Sequence record: NC_070980.1
Strand: one strand, 5' to 3'
Length of the DNA: 64,000 nt
Source: Escherichia phage vB_EcoP_SU7
Positions 1-6,001 of this stretch are shown here, in pieces (the stretch's first letter is position 1; each line of letters opens with the position of its first letter). The notes beneath the pieces were generated by a model. That model made no database searches. It worked only from the letters and a program-made list of their open reading frames with translations, and had not been told where the DNA came from. Made by a program: the position numbers and the translations under genes.

Positions 1-59
1 AGCCTTTCATCCCTTCTCAACATGAGTAAGAGAAATACGGGTAGGAAATCACTGGTTAG

Positions 60-630
60 ATATACATGGGTAAATAATCAATGTGTAATATCAATGGGTA
101 GGGTATTTATGGGTAAGTATGCCACTGAACGCAGGTAGGGCAAGGCTTAGAGCTTAAAGGCGGTTTGATTTCCTAAAGGCAATTGCATTGGTAATAACCT
201 TTTTTTAAATGAGGACTCCCCCTTTTTAGGAAACGCGCTCGGAGAGGCTAGGTCCATCCGGTCAAATTGAAATTTTAAACTCTTATATATAACTATATGC
301 CCCAACGTTAGTTGTGGATTTAAGCATAAGGAACAACTTAATGTGGAAATTGAAGATGATTATTCGACAGATTAAATGTAATCACGAGTACTATCCAATC
401 CGGATATCGAGAGGTGATGAACGGTTACATGCTTATTACAAGAGTACATGGAGGTGTGCAGACTGTGGTAAGGTGAGGAATAGTAAATGGGTGGATAGGC
501 CTTAACATGACATGGCCTTTATGGGTATGCCTTAATGTGGGGTAGCCTTTATGAAGTCCCCTTTACATCAGCGTACATGGGTTTATACATGGGTGGGCCT
601 TTAGATGAGTACGCCTTTATGGGTTGATCA
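60..630. repeat. Array of short degenerate direct repeats: ATGGGT core (about 8 copies) and GCCTTTATG (4 copies)
   Basis: ATGGGT at about 66, 94, 109, 487, 521, 577, 589, 618; GCCTTTATG-like at about 514, 545, 598, 612. Far above chance for a hexamer in 640 bp. Lies upstream of the terminase genes. Confidence 0.5.
341..505 (+). CDS. Hypothetical small Cys/His-containing protein (possible Zn-ribbon)
   Basis: ATG at 341 preceded by AAGGA; C-x-H...C-x2-C spacing in the translation. Overlaps the repeat array, so coding status is uncertain. Confidence 0.3.
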   Translation: MWKLKMIIRQIKCNHEYYPIRISRGDERLHAYYKSTWRCADCGKVRNSKWVDRP

Positions 631-656
631 CTCTCGTTTATCAGAGGAGAACAAAT

Positions 657-905
657 ATGTTTCTAGACTTTTTATCAGAGGTACTTCCCTACTTCCGCAC
701 TGAGAAATGTGCATTTGTATTTGATGAAGGGGAGGAGTCAGTGACTTGTTTGGGTAGATTAGTAGACCTAGACGATGATGAAGATTTTGATGCTACGATG
801 GACATTAGTTCATTGGGCTGGTTGTACATGAGATGCTTTGTAAGTTACAAGGCTGAAACGTTTAAAGATTATCGCTATAGCGCTGAAGGAGAGAATGATG
901 AATAA
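657..905 (+). CDS. Hypothetical acidic protein
   Basis: ATG at 657 with GAGGAGA SD 6 nt upstream; the track ORF begins at an upstream TTG. Confidence 0.4.
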   Translation: MFLDFLSEVLPYFRTEKCAFVFDEGEESVTCLGRLVDLDDDEDFDATMDISSLGWLYMRCFVSYKAETFKDYRYSAEGENDE

Positions 906-1551
906 TATGACAGGAACTAATACACTGAACGCAATCTATGAGAACATGGGATGTAAAGGCGAGGTTGTTTACAATGGTGGTCTCCGTCCTTTATCAGAGG
1001 ACACTTTCTATCTGAATCGTGTTCACGAAACTGCTGGAGGTAAATCCCGAGTTGAGATGGTAAAACAACTGGCTCATGGTTCTGTGTACGGTTATGCTCC
1101 TTCAACCCGTGAAATATGGGAAGGTTTGATTCCTCGTACAGAAGCTAAAGATGTGAAAGACTATTTCACTGTAGCAAAAGAAATTAAACGTAAGTGTCCA
1201 TCCAATTTAGAAGTTGTTCCGTATGTAGCTGACAAACATTCACACCTACCGGACTATGCCCGTGAGATGATTGAGATGATTGAAGAAGCCGAGTATGAAG
1301 CTCTGAATAATTATTTAAATTCAAAAGATCAATGGTCACGTAATGTAGTAATTGATGAAGAAGGTAATGAAGTAGTTACGTGGGTACATGCTAGTGAACA
1401 AGCTCTGGACCCCGAGCTTGAAGAATACAAAAAATTTTTGGCGTCCTCTTCTTTTGAGGTAGAGAATGACAAATCTATTCCAGTTGGCTGGGAAGGTGAA
1501 ACTGTAGCTCTCCAGACTTTGTTCAACCTACACGTAGGTGATGTAGATTAA
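895..1551 (+). CDS. Hypothetical protein
   Basis: 218-aa ORF with GAAGGAGAG SD; no recognisable motif. Confidence 0.5.
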   Translation: MMNNMTGTNTLNAIYENMGCKGEVVYNGGLRPLSEDTFYLNRVHETAGGKSRVEMVKQLAHGSVYGYAPSTREIWEGLIPRTEAKDVKDYFTVAKEIKRKCPSNLEVVPYVADKHSHLPDYAREMIEMIEEAEYEALNNYLNSKDQWSRNVVIDEEGNEVVTWVHASEQALDPELEEYKKFLASSSFEVENDKSIPVGWEGETVALQTLFNLHVGDVD

Positions 1552-1562
1552 TAAAAGGTGTT

Positions 1563-1586
1563 GCCTCCTCTCGTGGGAGGCTTTTT
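1563..1586 (+). terminator. Rho-independent terminator-like hairpin
   Basis: GCCTCCT/GGGAGGC stem followed by TTTTT directly after the 895-1551 ORF. Confidence 0.5.
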
Positions 1587-1616
1587 GTTATAACGATAAT
1601 GTAGAAGGAGTATAAG

Positions 1617-2084
1617 ATGTTTGGAGAAAAAGGAGAACTCACGCCTGCACAGGTAGCTGAGATTACAGGAAGACTGCCCGGAGTAACGGAAGAACTTGAA
1701 TCCAAGGGCATGGAACCAAGCACAGGGAGGTTCACTAAAGGTAATAAATTTGGACGTCCCAAAGGTAGTAGAGGTAAATTGACACAGCTCATGCTCGATC
1801 GTGTTGCTGCTAGTCATCTGTCTCCCGATGAAGTGTTGATTCAGATTTATGAAGATCCAAGTATTCCACCCGATCTTAGATTCAAGGCTGCAAGTAAAGT
1901 CGCTGATCTGGTATATCCTAAGGCAGCTTCTGTTGAGGTTAAGATTGAGGAAGAGAATGTAATCAATGAAGAATCACTGAACGCACAGATTCGAGACTTC
2001 TTGACTGGTGCACTGAAAGTGGATGTGCTACCTCCAGAGGACTCTGAGGACGCTGAAAAGGAGGAGGAAGCGGACGAGAGTTAA
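1617..2084 (+). CDS. Putative terminase small subunit / DNA-binding protein
   Basis: Immediately upstream of the large terminase; basic GRPKGSRGK segment and acidic C-terminus; AAGGAG SD. Assignment is by position. Confidence 0.4.
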   Translation: MFGEKGELTPAQVAEITGRLPGVTEELESKGMEPSTGRFTKGNKFGRPKGSRGKLTQLMLDRVAASHLSPDEVLIQIYEDPSIPPDLRFKAASKVADLVYPKAASVEVKIEEENVINEESLNAQIRDFLTGALKVDVLPPEDSEDAEKEEEADES

Positions 2085-2150
2085 TAGGAATAAAGGGGAG
2101 GGTTCTTTTCGCGAGGGATCTCTCCCTTTCTTATTTTATTGGAGGAATAT

Positions 2151-3692
2151 ATGTCGTTAGATAAAGAAATCTATGAAGCTCTAACTGGAGACAAGTTGAG
2201 TATAGAGGAAAAGAAAGCTTTGCTCAATATGTTAAAAGAAAGGGACCAGTGGAGAAAATATAACAAGATGTTGGCTTTTAAAGCCTACGACTTTCAGAAG
2301 AAATTCTATGCAGCAGGGTTGAAGCATCGCTTTCGATTCCTGTGCGCAGCTAACCGTGTTGGTAAATCTTACAGCGAGGCATACGAGTTTGCTTGTCATG
2401 TCACAGGTCGCTATCCAACTTGGTGGACAGGTTACAGATTTAATCGACCCATATTGGCTTGGGCAGTAGGGATTACAGGGGACTCTACAAGAAAGGTATT
2501 GCAAAAGGAGTTGTTTGGAACACCTATCGGAAAGGATATGAATCTAATAGGAACAGGTGTTATTCCTCGTGATGCTATCGTATTGGACACGATAGAACGA
2601 GATGGGAACAAATTACAGATTGTACAAATTAAGCATCAAAACGCGAGAGGCGAGTTTGACGGTCTAAGTACGCTGGAGTTCCGTTCTACCCAACAGGGTG
2701 AACATACATTGATGGGTGCTACGGTTGATTACATTTGGCTGGACGAAGAAGATCCATACGAATCTATGGCAATCTTCTCTCAGTGCGTAACACGTACACT
2801 TACAACTAAAGGTTTAGTTACTATTACAGCTACACCAGAGAACGGTTTAACAGAGCTGGTGGATAAGTTTATGAAAGGTGAAGGAGATGAGAACACAGGT
2901 TCTCTGTATTTCCAGAATGCTTCTTGGTGGGATGCTCATGTAGATTTAGGTGGACATATCACTGACCAAGATATTAAAGACATGACTGAAGGTATTCCAA
3001 CATGGCAGTTAGAGATGCGTTCAAAAGGTATGCCGTTGCTTGGTTCTGGTTTGATTTATGATGTATCAGATGACATGATTAAGTGTGATCCCTTTGAGAT
3101 ACCTGATACGTGGAAACGTGTTTGTGCTATTGATATTGGTATCGATCACCCGACAGCCGCTGTTTGGACAGCATATGATGCTAACACTGATACGATTTAT
3201 GTTTATGACTGCTATAAAGAAGGTGGGTTTACTCCGGTGTACCATGCACCAGCTATTAATGGTCGTGGTCAGTGGATTCCAGTTATTCTTCCTCACGATG
3301 CCGATAATATTGAGAAGGGAAGTGGTTCGTCTGTTGCTCAATTCTATAAGAATGCAGGGGTTAATGTACAGAGTGAGACCTTCTACAACAAGATTGGAAT
3401 GGATGGTAAGAAGAACTTCTTTGTAGAGCCGGGAATTACTGATATTCGTGAACGTATGATGTCAGGTCGTTTTAAAATCTTTAACATTGCTTCGTGTGCT
3501 AAACTCTTTGAAGAGAAAGCTCGCTATCACCGTAAGGTTGGCAAGATTGTTAAGGAACATGATGACTTGATGGATGCTATGCGATATTCAGCTTGTTCTG
3601 TAACACATCGTGGACGTAGTAAGCATGATGCTAGTTATGGTAGTTCATCGCTTTATCAAGACAATATTAACAGATGGAATCAGACCTACTAA
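2151..3692 (+). CDS. terL: Terminase large subunit (ATPase + nuclease)
   Basis: Walker A-like CAANRVGKS, Walker B-like IWLDEED, C-terminal acidic nuclease region; ATG at 2151 with GGAGGA SD (track ORF starts at upstream TTG 2139). Confidence 0.85.
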   Translation: MSLDKEIYEALTGDKLSIEEKKALLNMLKERDQWRKYNKMLAFKAYDFQKKFYAAGLKHRFRFLCAANRVGKSYSEAYEFACHVTGRYPTWWTGYRFNRPILAWAVGITGDSTRKVLQKELFGTPIGKDMNLIGTGVIPRDAIVLDTIERDGNKLQIVQIKHQNARGEFDGLSTLEFRSTQQGEHTLMGATVDYIWLDEEDPYESMAIFSQCVTRTLTTKGLVTITATPENGLTELVDKFMKGEGDENTGSLYFQNASWWDAHVDLGGHITDQDIKDMTEGIPTWQLEMRSKGMPLLGSGLIYDVSDDMIKCDPFEIPDTWKRVCAIDIGIDHPTAAVWTAYDANTDTIYVYDCYKEGGFTPVYHAPAINGRGQWIPVILPHDADNIEKGSGSSVAQFYKNAGVNVQSETFYNKIGMDGKKNFFVEPGITDIRERMMSGRFKIFNIASCAKLFEEKARYHRKVGKIVKEHDDLMDAMRYSACSVTHRGRSKHDASYGSSSLYQDNINRWNQTY

Positions 3693-3697
3693 AAATA

Positions 3698-3720
3698 GGG
3701 GAGGCTTTGTCCTCCCTTTA
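3698..3720 (+). terminator. Terminator-like hairpin
   Basis: GGGGAGG-CTTTGT-CCTCCC stem-loop after the terminase stop; weak T-run. Confidence 0.35.
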
Positions 3721-3757
3721 GTAGTTCCTTCCAAGCTATCACCGAGGGAGAGATTAG

Positions 3758-6001
3758 ATGGCTAAGAAGAAATTTAGTGAAGATGTTTTGGATGAATTAC
3801 GCGTTGACCTTCAACGTCGATTCAATTATGCTCAAGGTTATGTAGACTTAGCTGTAAAAGGCTATGCTCGTGAGGCTTGGGAATACTTCTATGGGAACCT
3901 TCCTGCTCCAGTTACTGCTGGTAGCTCTAGTTGGGTAGACCGTACGGTATGGGAATCAGTGAATGGTACGCTCCAAGATATCATTAATGTGTTCTGTTCT
4001 GGTGACGAAGCGGTAACTTTCGTAGCCGATAACCAAGAAGATAGTGATGCTGCTGACGTAGCCACTAAACTTGTCAACCAAATTTTGTTACGTGATAATC
4101 CGGGATACAATATTATCTCTTCAGCGGCACAAGAGTGTCTGGTTACACGTAACTCTTTTATTAAATATTATTGGGATGAACAAACTTCTACCCAAACAGA
4201 AGAAGCAGAGGGTGTTCCTCCGGAAGCTTTGGCTGCATATGTCCAAGGTTTAGAAGCTGGTGGGCTTCAAGATTTAGAAATCTTTACCACTGACAACGAA
4301 GATGGTACAGTGGATGTTAAAGTAACTTACAAACAAACAGTAAAACGCGTTAAAGTAGAATATGTTCCTTCAGAACAGATTTTTGTTGACGAACATGCTA
4401 CCTCTTTTGCAGATGCTCAGTATTTCTGTCATCGCACACGTAAATCTAAAGAAGATCTGGTTGCTATGGGCTTCCCTAAAGATGAAATTGAAGCTTTTAA
4501 TGACTGGACTGATACAATGGACACCACTCAATCTACTGTTGCATGGTCACGTACTGACTGGCGTCAGGATATAGATTCAGATATCGGTGTAGACACTGAT
4601 GATATCGCTTCTATGGTTTGGGTTTACGAGCATTACATCCGTACTGGTGTACTGGATAAGAATAAAGAAGCAAAACTCTATCAAGTTATTCAAGCAGGTG
4701 AGCATATTCTCAGTTGTGAAGAAGTAACTAGCATTCCTTTTGTAACATTCTGCCCTTATCCTATTCCGGGTTCATTCTATGGACAATCTGTTTATGATAT
4801 CACCAAAGATATTCAGGATTTGCGTACCGCTTTGGTTCGTGGTTATATCGATAACGTAAACAATGCTAACTATGGTCGTTATAAGGCTCTTGTAGGTGCT
4901 TATGACCGTCGTTCTCTACTGGATAACCGTCCGGGTGGTGTAGTAGAAATGGAGCGTCAGGATGCGATTGATCTCTTCCCATACCATAATCTACCTCAAG
5001 GTATCGATGGCTTGCTGGGAATGTCTGATGAGTTGAAAGAAACTCGTACTGGTGTTACTAAACTCGGTATGGGTATTAACCCTGATGTGTTTAAGAATGA
5101 TAACGCATATGCAACTGTTGGATTGATGATGAATGCTGCTCAGAACCGTCTCCGTATGGTCTGTCGTAACATTGCTCACAACGGTATGGTTGAATTGATG
5201 CGTGGTATTTATAATTTAGTCCGAGAAAATGGTGAGGTTCCTTTACAAGTACAAACCCCTCGTGGTATGGTTCAGGTTCATCCTAAACAACTGCCTGCTC
5301 GTCACAATCTACAAGTTGTTGTAGCTATCTCTCCTAGCGAGAAATCAGAACGTGCCCAGAAACTAATCAGCCTGAAGCAATTGATTGCTGCTGATGCTCA
5401 GTTAGCACCTCTGTTCACTCTGGAGCAAGATCGTTATATGACTGCACAGATCTTCGAGTTGATGGGAATTAAAGACACTCACAAATACTTAATGCCTCTG
5501 GAACAGTATCAACCGCCAGAACCTTCTCCGATGGAAATCCTCCAGCTTGAGATGACTAAAGCACAGGTTGAGAACGTACAGGCTTCTTCTCAGAAGATGA
5601 TTGCTGATGCATTCGACCAGCGTGAACGTACTACGTTTGAACAGCAGAAAGCTGCGGATGAGTTCAGCTTGCGTCAAGAAGAACTGCAATTTAAGCAAGA
5701 GAATGCTGCTGATCAGATGACTTTGGAGAATCGTAAAGAAGACAACAGTGCTACACTTGAACAAGCTAAGCATAAGTTGGCTCTGCTCCAGCAACAGGTC
5801 CGTCAGTACGAATCTGTACTTAAAGAATTGCAGATGACTCTTAACCATCAGGTTGATGTTGAGAAAGTTGCAAATCAGGCTAAAATTCAAGATAAGACTT
5901 TGGAACTCCAAAAGAAAGAAGCAAATGAAACTAAGAAAGAACAGCAAAGTTCAATCAAAGATTCACGGATTCCTAACCGTCGTCTTGGTAGTAGAAAATA
6001 A
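3758..6001 (+). CDS. Portal protein
   Basis: 747-aa ORF directly after the large terminase, strong SD, C-terminal coiled-coil/charged tail; assignment by position and size. Confidence 0.65.
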   Translation: MAKKKFSEDVLDELRVDLQRRFNYAQGYVDLAVKGYAREAWEYFYGNLPAPVTAGSSSWVDRTVWESVNGTLQDIINVFCSGDEAVTFVADNQEDSDAADVATKLVNQILLRDNPGYNIISSAAQECLVTRNSFIKYYWDEQTSTQTEEAEGVPPEALAAYVQGLEAGGLQDLEIFTTDNEDGTVDVKVTYKQTVKRVKVEYVPSEQIFVDEHATSFADAQYFCHRTRKSKEDLVAMGFPKDEIEAFNDWTDTMDTTQSTVAWSRTDWRQDIDSDIGVDTDDIASMVWVYEHYIRTGVLDKNKEAKLYQVIQAGEHILSCEEVTSIPFVTFCPYPIPGSFYGQSVYDITKDIQDLRTALVRGYIDNVNNANYGRYKALVGAYDRRSLLDNRPGGVVEMERQDAIDLFPYHNLPQGIDGLLGMSDELKETRTGVTKLGMGINPDVFKNDNAYATVGLMMNAAQNRLRMVCRNIAHNGMVELMRGIYNLVRENGEVPLQVQTPRGMVQVHPKQLPARHNLQVVVAISPSEKSERAQKLISLKQLIAADAQLAPLFTLEQDRYMTAQIFELMGIKDTHKYLMPLEQYQPPEPSPMEILQLEMTKAQVENVQASSQKMIADAFDQRERTTFEQQKAADEFSLRQEELQFKQENAADQMTLENRKEDNSATLEQAKHKLALLQQQVRQYESVLKELQMTLNHQVDVEKVANQAKIQDKTLELQKKEANETKKEQQSSIKDSRIPNRRLGSRK

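Follow-up and report, generated by a model that had tools for sequence, protein, structure and literature searches.

Among the phage loci at which short repeats accompany packaging or replication sites, the SRL and SRR arrays of phage T7 are the closest analogue of the repeats described here, which are located at the left end of Escherichia phage vB_EcoP_SU7 (sequence record NC_070980.1; a stretch of 64,000 nucleotides was analysed, hereafter called the window, and coordinates refer to it unless another genome is named). At the left end of T7, the heptamer CCTAAAG is found at positions 17, 41 and 60 within the 160-bp terminal repeat, and approximately a dozen copies with a 13-bp period start from position 174. 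In lambda, cosB carries the R3, R2 and R1 sites for gpNu1 between cosN and the Nu1 gene. The pac site of P1 contains seven TGATCA/G hexamers, which flank the cut in groups of four and three and are recognised by the packaging enzyme. According to the introduction of one paper (PMC7672466), the lambda sites are bound by the small terminase, which positions the large subunit; this introduction and the YF01 paper also describe specific binding of the PaP3 small terminase (TerS) to its cos DNA. In the SU7 window, one array of short direct repeats is located within the left direct terminal repeat (DTR) and another, the main array, at 487–630, and in relatives a third array is present near the right DTR. 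The reading that we favour, with a probability of approximately 45%, is that these arrays serve as a platform at the concatemer junction on which the terminase recognises the DNA and assembles, in a manner similar to T7 SRL/SRR, lambda cosB and P1 pac. The element would then probably be of an ordinary kind, namely short-repeat arrays tied to a terminal repeat for terminase recognition.

Like T7, these phages have a short direct terminal repeat and unique genome ends. In both systems, a core of 6–7 bp is repeated in one orientation with a period of 13–16 bp just past the terminal repeat, further copies are located inside it and arrays are present on both sides of the junction, which in the present case is seen in the records of relatives. 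Replication and packaging from concatemers are also thought to be T7-like in this group (SU10 and YF01 papers). However, the cores are unrelated (ATG-N5-GCCTT and AYGGGKA here, CCTAAAG in T7); only two inverted copies of GCCTTTA(A/G)G read C(T/C)TAAAGG on the + strand. Furthermore, an early promoter region and a gene lie between the DTR and the main array here, the TerS and large terminase (TerL) families differ, and junction processing in T7 uses the phage RNA polymerase, whereas these phages have none (SU10 paper). The T7 arrays are an analogue, not a homologue.

The resemblance to lambda cosB consists of several short sites on the terminase-gene side of the cut, and TerS of SU7 is PaP3-like. 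Multiple sub-sites, as a cosB- or pac-like layout would require, are present, one of them at the left cut, but the main array is located 238–381 bp past the DTR and ~1 kb upstream of the TerS gene. The lambda locus comprises three sites of 16 bp together with an IHF site, and its cohesive ends are 12 nt long, whereas approximately nine units of 14/16 bp, no IHF consensus, blunt ends and a duplication of 249 bp, for which two cuts are necessary, are found here, at a distance of several hundred base pairs from the cut. P1 pac also contains iterated hexamer-scale elements clustered around a cleavage region, but P1 is a headful packager and its hexamers are Dam-methylation sites within pacA, whereas the units of SU7 lack GATC, the ends are fixed and the arrays extend over ~1 kb. 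Lambda cosB and the P1 pac hexamers would serve as functional models for the loading of TerS on iterated sub-sites. The iterons of the lambda ori or pSC101 type are likewise one-orientation direct repeats with conserved cores and variable spacers, but they are usually 17–22 bp in length, phased with the helix and accompanied by an AT-rich element and an initiator gene, none of which was found for the left array.

The hexamer ATGGGT, reported in an earlier note to occur about eight times near the left end, was found exactly eight times in 60–630, always on the + strand (66, 94, 109, 487, 521, 577, 589 and 619). The remaining ~63.4 kb contain 46 copies on both strands, corresponding to ~0.4 expected per 571 bp, and four or more copies per 571 bp were detected only at the left end, the maximum elsewhere being three. 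The 9-mer GCCTTTATG, for which four occurrences had been claimed, is present in only three exact copies (515, 545 and 613); a fourth exists as a one-mismatch or two-base-insertion variant, either GCCTTAATG at 529 or GCCTTTAGATG at 597. When the looser core [GC]CCTT[TA]A was used, 7 of the 17 + strand copies in the 64 kb were located in 499–613. The combined motif density is 12 matches per 200 bp in the array compared with 3 or fewer anywhere else in the 64 kb, and a repeat search recovered a 30–35-nt double unit three times (492, 522 and 590). Tandem Repeats Finder did not report the array because its units are too degenerate. The repeat density is far beyond chance, and the observation is real. 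The hexamers do not form the single array that had been described, but rather two features, a DTR cluster (66–114) and a second cluster (487–624), with 370 bp between them and a different genomic context for each. The five copies of the latter are located 238–375 bp beyond the DTR, and the first of these, at 487, lies within the last codons of gene 1.

The main array (487–630, + strand) consists of nine same-orientation units of the form ATG-N5-(G/C)CCTT(T/A). These are U1 (487–506, ATGGGTGGATAGGCCTTAAC), U2 (507–520, ATGACATGGCCTTT), U3 (521–534, ATGGGTATGCCTTA), U4 (535–550, ATGTGGGGTAGCCTTT), U5 (551–566, ATGAAGTCCCCTTTAC, followed by ATCAGCGTAC), U6 (577–588, ATGGGTTTATAC), U7 (589–604, ATGGGTGGGCCTTTAG), U8 (605–618, ATGAGTACGCCTTT) and U9 (619–630, ATGGGTTGATCA). 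The last codons of gene 1 (AAA TGG GTG GAT AGG CCT TAA; AAATGGGTGGATAGGCCTTAA, encoding K W V D R P and the stop) make up U1. In a logo of 74 distinct units from 18 genomes aligned on the CCTT core, CCTT is present in 100% and the T and G of ATG in 95%, whereas the five spacer positions are near random (~0–0.3 bits), and ATG and core are always separated by 5 nt. Successive cores are spaced by 14 bp in 25 cases and by 16 bp in 39, and a spacing of 15 bp was never seen. ATGGGT is the commonest unit start in the main array, and GCCTTTATG represents a core together with the ATG with which the next 14-bp unit begins. The two sequences, which the earlier note had treated as separate motifs, are thus overlapping parts of one bipartite 14/16-bp unit. 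The combination of an invariant core, a near-random spacer and a fixed unit length supports selection on the core and not on the spacer; the motifs behave as selected sites arrayed in one orientation, in partial agreement with the earlier suggestion that they mark a protein-binding array. Elsewhere in the 64 kb, the composite unit occurs only twice more on the + strand, both times in isolation. The predicted RNA fold of the array is not more stable than that of shuffled sequence (minimum free energy z-score of +0.89), and an Rfam search of the array gave no match at E <= 1.

The first 4 kb of the window show up to 98% identity to Kuravirus/Suseptimavirus coliphages (phiEco32-like phages of the subfamily Gordonclarkvirinae), and the first 700 bp are the most variable part of this region (~90% identity versus 98% over 1–4000). 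To define array conservation, a total of 23 genomes and metagenome contigs were tabulated and the main array was extracted in 22; Bas94 was missed by the extraction pattern, and its array is visible in the comparison of relatives. The 22 extracted arrays contain 5–7 cores each, all on the + strand and none on the minus strand, and close relatives differ by the gain or loss of whole 14- or 16-bp units. Comparison with related phages, one of the checks proposed earlier, therefore revealed that the array is kept in the genomes compared despite the local variability and the turnover of units.

The left physical end of the genome is placed at position 1 and the left DTR at 1–249 (+ strand) on the basis of homology to NC-B, phiEco32 and 4E8. 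Position 1 of the window is also position 1 of several deposited linear records of relatives, and the window start, AGCCTTTC, is the start of the experimentally mapped phiEco32 genome. The NC-B record, which is 97.5% identical, contains the same 250 bp at both ends, from AGCCTTTC to GGAGAGGCT; because its repeat runs between these two sequences, the right boundary would also be CT^AG, which corresponds to an inferred blunt cut between 249 and 250 within the CTAG at 248–251. The annotated DTR of 4E8 ends at CT^AG, matching this boundary, and the end of the 193-bp repeat of phiEco32 reads GCGGCT^AGG. Homology thus points to a linear genome whose ends are fixed and carry a short direct repeat, the window itself stopping before the right end. 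The location of both boundaries in the middle of CTAG is consistent with the blunt ends of SU10, which are indicated by sequencing reads (SU10 paper), and 193-bp blunt-ended terminal repeats have been described in phiEco32, SU10 and YF01. The left cut in 4E8 and ECBP2 is CT^GG, unlike the CT^AG of the window. CTAG is common, and because there are 148 copies in the 64 kb, it is not the whole cut specificity.

The terminal repeat itself is associated with the repeat units, as the earlier note had considered plausible: three of the eight ATGGGT copies are located in the 249-bp DTR, and the core-like AGCCTTTC is located at the left cut. The terminal motif AGCCTTTCA (1–9, + strand) places a copy of the GCCTTT core directly at this cut, where the concatemer would read CT^AGCCTTTC. 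Most of the examined relatives and metagenome contigs have AGCCTTTC as their DTR start, preceded by CT, and in permuted or circular records of relatives CT always precedes the AGCCTTTC octamer. The DTR starts with GGCCTCTC in 4E8 and with GGCCTTTC in ECBP2, and a GCCTTT core copy is present at the left cleavage site in most relatives. In addition, two inverted GCCTTTA cores are present on the minus strand (GCCTTTAAG, 153–161; GCCTTTAGG, 172–180), and one to three such cores (TAAAGGC on the + strand) were found in all compared DTRs except that of 4E8, which has none. A conserved T-run block, CCTTTTTTTAAATGAGGACTCCCCCTTTTTAGG (198–230, + strand), near the right end of the DTR was found in all relatives compared; it corresponds to the CCCTTTTTTA-N10-CCCTTTTTTA repeat described in the terminal repeat of SU10 (SU10 paper) and to the 130–170 region reported to be conserved in Kuravirus DTRs (YF01 paper).

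The DTR length is polymorphic in the group (193, 206, 249–250 and 280 bp), a range that sequence comparison attributes to module swaps and insertions; the DTR of TH42 carries a 31-bp insertion bearing an extra ATGGGT unit. The published DTR of SU7 is 53 bp in length, and its authors cautioned that this value may be an underestimate; it probably is, as homology to NC-B and phiEco32 indicates 249 bp. PAS59 has been annotated with a 275-bp repeat_region extending from 208 bp upstream of AGCCTTTC to +67 (L003, 1–275); all other evidence contradicts this, and the annotated repeat is probably an overlap left by assembly rather than a true DTR. The ends of metagenome contigs were a weak proxy for termini: two start 4 and 16 bp before the inferred terminus, and the others are scattered.

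The DTR-internal array (32–115, + strand) is composed of what we call A-type units, namely ACGGGTA at 37–43 followed by four 12-nt units, TATACATGGGTA (61–72), AATCAATGTGTA (76–87), TATCAATGGGTA (89–100) and TATTTATGGGTA (104–115). The repeat search identified the 12-nt unit, TAYNNATGGGTA, four times in 61–115 with spacings of 15, 13 and 15, and the ATGGGT copies at 66, 94 and 109 are part of this series with its 13–15-bp period. Four to five copies of AYGGGK, nearly all on the + strand, are present in all but one of the 23 DTRs compared. In phiEco32-type genomes, ACGGGGA is found at places homologous to the ATGGGTA of the SU7 clade, both in the DTR and in the right-end array. Over all genomes, AYGGG spacing peaks at 13–16 bp and 28–31 bp, and C replaces T at the ATG position in 59% of the units of the A-type arrays (DTR and right end). 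ATGGGTA is also the reverse complement of the NarL heptamer TACCCAT; this was judged to be a coincidence, as the ACGGGGA variant does not fit.

A third array, consisting of AYGGGKA with 15- or 30-bp spacing, was seen 290–430 bp to the left of the right DTR in those relatives for which the record extends across the junction (BS3, TH42, MLP3, phiEco32, 4E8, ECBP2 and NC-B). It is followed by a conserved A-rich block of ~150 bp (CGCTGAAAAAGAAA...). In the BS3 locus, L005, this region is located at approximately 1075–1180 and 1240–1320, and it is also seen in L012, L020, L021 and L024. At the right-hand genome end in the SU7 clade, we also observed an element, TATAATGTA(A/T)G, that faces the DTR and resembles both the sigma-70 -10 box and the gp36 promoter consensus. 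The region containing the A-rich block and this element could be an origin or a promoter that reads across the junction.

The protein most likely to bind these arrays is encoded at 1617–2084 (+ strand), directly upstream of TerL (2139–3692, + strand; Pfam Terminase_6N, E = 1e-14, and Terminase_6C, E = 9.6e-15). The 155-aa product, which is 100% identical to SU7 gp003, is a putative TerS on account of this position, of profile matches, of a weak DUF5681 match and of the assignment of its orthologue by HHpred in the YF01 paper. When a profile of its homologues was compared with the small terminases in PDB, 7JOQ (E = 0.021) and PaP3 6W7T (E = 0.81) were matched; a single-sequence search of PDB yielded noise only. 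TerS is at least 88% identical across the whole group. Homologues with 43–51% identity are encoded by Cronobacter phage GAP52, Salmonella phage pSal-SNUABM-01, Proteus phage Privateer and Aeromonas phage LAh_9, and each of these phages contains three to five same-strand copies of ATG-N5-[GC]CAT in the region 100–460 bp upstream of the TerS gene, compared with 0.3–0.7 copies per whole locus in shuffled sequences. Examples are ATGACCTCCCATC and, in Privateer, ATGACATGGCATT, to be compared with ATGACATGGCCTT in the window. These units are located immediately upstream of a late promoter of the 7-11 type (GTAATG-16-ACTA) that precedes TerS. Because similar units are present upstream of TerS in such distant phages, the array must be old, and it is the TerS gene, apparently not gene 1, with which it travels. 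Judging from the annotation, a gene 1 homologue appears to be missing in GAP52 and pSal-SNUABM-01, where no gene is annotated upstream of TerS in the stretches compared; no direct search for gene 1 homologues was made. The 1.7-kb non-coding region upstream of TerS in GAP52 also contains four perfect DnaA boxes (TTATCCACA) and one inverted box (L023, 440–640), a cluster with no equivalent at Kuravirus ends.

In the mechanism that we favour, the arrays would be DNA-level binding sites for an oligomeric phage protein, most likely TerS. The ATG and GCCTT parts of a unit are centred ~9.5 bp apart, approximately one helical turn, and would be presented on one face of the DNA. The head-to-tail arrangement of 14/16-bp units may allow cooperative loading, in one direction, of the neighbouring DNA-binding domains of a TerS ring or filament. 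The TerS complex would mark the junction in replicated concatemers and place TerL where the two CT^AG cuts on either side of the repeat are made, and packaging would start at the left end and proceed towards the terminase and structural genes. This proposal is supported by the uniqueness of the cluster in the 64 kb, its location at the physical left end and its single orientation; by the non-coding nature of the array and its lack of an RNA structure signal; by the rarity of the composite unit elsewhere, which shows that it is not a general promoter element; by the core copy at the left cut and the inverted cores in nearly all DTRs; and by the association of arrays with TerS across phage families. 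We extend it, more tentatively and with less confidence than the reading itself, to the proposition that ATG-N5-(G/C)C(C/A)T arrays may be an ancient cis packaging signal linked to DUF5681/PaP3-like TerS across Kuravirus-like phages, Grimontviridae and Lahexavirus, which together with the AYGGGKA arrays would set TerS loading and the CT^AG cuts of TerL.

A number of observations weigh against this reading. The main array starts 238 bp past the DTR boundary and 487 bp from the DNA end, and the early promoter region and gene 1 lie between it and the DTR. It is also not located just upstream of the terminase genes, as had been stated: TerS starts at 1617, ~1 kb further on, and two open reading frames (ORFs), one terminator and one late promoter intervene. 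Unit number varies between genomes, and in phiEco32-type genomes the array is split by a small gene into halves ~130 bp apart; therefore, any requirement for a particular architecture must be loose. In the distant phages, a late promoter follows closely after the arrays, and a role in transcription would explain this position just as well. The identity of TerS rests on weak profile matches, its AlphaFold2 model is poor (pLDDT, the predicted local distance difference test score, of 66) and a Foldseek search of PDB with this model was uninformative, and TerS is proposed as the partner from position and co-occurrence only. The array variants also do not track TerS: ECBP2 mixes ATGGGTA and ACGGGGA, and the metagenome contigs L030 and L031 share the same TerS and the same left array, while their DTR modules differ. 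Because of these cases and because TerS is so well conserved in the group, the two variants appear to be interchangeable, and the covariation test does not identify the partner; a specificity switch in which ATGGGTA versus ACGGGGA would follow one protein was thus dropped. Covariation of the sequences 3' of the two cut sites (CATCC/CATCC versus CACTC/CACTC) was likewise abandoned, being broken by TH42 and ECBP2. Finally, to our knowledge, T7 SRL/SRR have never been shown to be required for packaging, and the function of the T7 arrays is unproven.

The co-occurrence with TerS could also reflect transcription if the units bind a phage regulator, or RNA polymerase carrying the phage sigma factor or gp79, and thereby control the left early operon in SU7 and the first promoter of the late packaging operon in the ancestral arrangement. 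The ATG-N5-SCAT units of GAP52, pSal-SNUABM-01, Privateer and LAh_9 indeed abut the GTAATG-16-ACTA promoter, TCAGTGTAA repeats overlap the upstream element of the late promoter of these distant phages, the array of SU7, flanked by gene 1 and gene 4, is part of the early left operon, and its unit TTAATGTGG (531–539) matches the gp36 consensus tAATGTAtA at six of nine positions. However, that site (TAATGTGGG) is also the best match in the array, the true late-promoter match being located at 1597–1605, and the six mapped gp36 promoters of phiEco32 lie upstream of genes 6, 13, 26, 40, 58 and 68, none of them at the array. The motif is absent from the rest of the window, which should hold other late promoters (these were not individually located), and A-type copies in the DTR and at the right end adjoin no mapped promoter. 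Moreover, the unit is conserved between the two phage groups even though their sigma factors share only ~15% identity and recognise promoters of different architecture. We consider an operator or enhancer rather unlikely on balance. A replication origin, which had been named alongside packaging in the earlier note, is unlikely as well; in that case, the units at the concatemer junction would be iterons or would bind some other protein of replication or end protection. Regularly spaced same-orientation repeats are typical of origins, the right-end AYGGGKA array with its ~30-bp spacing is followed in relatives by the A-rich block, a possible unwinding element, and the DnaA-box cluster of GAP52 is located in the same large non-coding region as its units. 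Cumulative GC skew also turns at the genome ends, but it follows the direction of transcription and does not discriminate. The left array itself has a G+C content of 45–47% with no adjoining AT-rich block, its 14/16-bp period is off the helical phase in contrast to the 20–22 bp of classical iterons, and neither DnaA boxes nor an IHF consensus (TTWTNCACA, WATCAANNNNTTR) were found in the first 3 kb or in the ends of six relatives. There is no recognisable initiator gene nearby, the neighbouring ORFs lack matches to replication-related families, and the link across phage families is to the TerS gene, not to replication genes. The origin proposal thus fits the right-end array and its A-rich block better than the left array, and the packaging proposal gains indirectly from the arrays upstream of distant TerS genes. 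A choice between a packaging signal and an origin cannot be made from the sequence alone.

Two further explanations dispense with a DNA-binding protein. The array may be a spacer prone to slippage and recombination that arose by duplication of the 3' end of gene 1 and has no sequence-specific function, except at most as a landing pad for cassettes. This would account for the first unit being the end of gene 1, for the similarity of other units to it (ATGGGTGGATAGGCCTTAA versus ATGGGTGGGCCTTTAG), for changes in unit number between near-identical genomes, for the small ORFs and ~20-bp hairpins inserted at unit boundaries in relatives and for the low conservation of the first 700 bp. A recent duplication would, however, keep whole units, whereas here the core and ATG are near-invariant and the spacers near random; in addition, the orientation is the same in all 22 extracted arrays and a related unit occurs upstream of TerS in families in which TerS is only 43–51% identical. 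These features make a functionless spacer quite improbable. The alternative that the array acts as RNA, its AUGs and CCU-UAA mini-ORFs relaying or trapping ribosomes between gene 1 and gene 4 or forming a regulatory RNA, draws on the presence of ATG in almost every unit, on the fact that units of the form ATG-NNN-NNG-CCT-TAA are in-frame four-codon ORFs ending in Pro-stop and on the location of the array in a transcribed early spacer. Only 32% of cores have the TAA version, however, the 14- and 16-bp periods destroy the reading frame, gene 4 has its own strong Shine-Dalgarno sequence and neither the fold nor the Rfam search described above revealed an RNA element. As the 7-11-type arrays are upstream of the promoter and most A-type units have C for T at the ATG, we regard this possibility as very remote. 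Terminase recognition remains the reading that we prefer.

Several features of the array region of relatives are worth describing in their own right. Hairpin-forming inserts of ~20 bp, such as cactacttcgtagtg and gtcatcaaagatgac, are present at unit boundaries in MLP3 (L014), EK5/ShigP1 (L018/L019), Bas94 (L016) and ECBP2 (L011); their sequences and positions differ between relatives, as if the array were the target of a tiny element that is mobile or derived from recombination. Small gene cassettes are located in or beside the array in phiEco32 (gene 2; L008, 489–629), 4E8 (L001) and ECBP2 (L011); they encode an acidic peptide (MTEDE...) and a hydrophobic 26-aa peptide, each after a ribosome-binding site (RBS) of the TTTATCAGAGG type. 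The region, as far as the compared sequences indicate, acts as an insertion hot spot.

In the window, the main array occupies the spacer between gene 1 and gene 4. Gene 1 (341–505, + strand), which is annotated in UKE3, BS3 and phiEco32, encodes a 54-aa small protein with a CxH...CxxC pattern (PHROG 7696, E = 1.8e-11) and belongs to the left-end early operon, genes 1–3 being classed as early in the SU10 paper. The sequence ATGGGTGGA(T/A)(A/G)G, which encodes the C-terminus of gene 1 (485–499), recurs in non-coding DNA ~40 bp upstream of TerS in GAP52 (L023, ~1660) and pSal-SNUABM-01 (L035, ~1640); this suggests that it may be a conserved DNA or RNA element that gene 1 came to overlap. A sigma-70 promoter scan of 1–700 revealed no convincing promoter, and the early left promoter could not be placed by eye. 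Gene 4, the first gene downstream of the array, and its RBS region TTTATCAGAGGAGAA occupy 637–905 on the + strand (ATG at 657, 82 aa; PHROG 12698, E = 1e-38). Privateer has the RBS-like TTTATCAGAG of gene 4 upstream of its TerS gene as well. Two copies of TTTATCAGAGG, 34 bp apart, are located in the RBS region (637–647) and in the first codons (671–681) of gene 4, and the same duplicated motif is present upstream of TerS in Privateer. The ORF at 895–1551 bears the name 'ABC transporter' from PHROG 12176 and RefSeq; no Pfam match was found at E <= 0.1, and the name looks unsupported. An intrinsic terminator (1563–1581), identified by a terminator scan, and a match to the phiEco32 late-promoter consensus tAATGTAtA (TAATGTAGA, 1597–1605), both on the + strand, form the boundary between the array-bearing left early operon and the late packaging operon; in phiEco32, a mapped promoter lies upstream of gene 6.

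Several small 'hypothetical proteins' called in the DTR and the array are probably not genes. The 30-codon ORF at 535–627 (+ strand), which is annotated as a hypothetical protein in some relatives, has no PHROG match and is intact only in the nearest relatives; it is truncated, frame-shifted or absent in NC-B, TH34, Bas87, MLP3, PAS59 and TH42, its frame being broken because 14- or 16-bp units come and go, and we judge it not to be a gene. The ORFs at 22–138 (+ strand) and 147–305 (minus strand), annotated as hypothetical proteins in UKE3/BS3, are located inside or across the terminal repeat and repeat arrays and are probably not genes either.

No description of the arrays was found in the literature on phiEco32-like phages, a survey that did not cover the original phiEco32 papers (Savalia 2008, Pavlova 2012), and they thus appear to have been undescribed so far. 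The present analysis corrects the annotation of this region with respect to the small 'hypothetical proteins' of the DTR and array and suggests a DTR length of 249 bp in place of 53 bp. It also defines the coordinates of candidate cis elements and the consensus of their unit, and it proposes CT^AG as the cut sites and a candidate for the binding protein. The region is also one to keep intact when these therapeutic-candidate coliphages are engineered or rebooted. The packaging mechanism of the prolate C3 podophages has been called unknown by the authors of the SU10 paper. If the more tentative extension of our reading is true, the arrays would represent the first defined packaging signal for these phages, one that works without a phage RNA polymerase.

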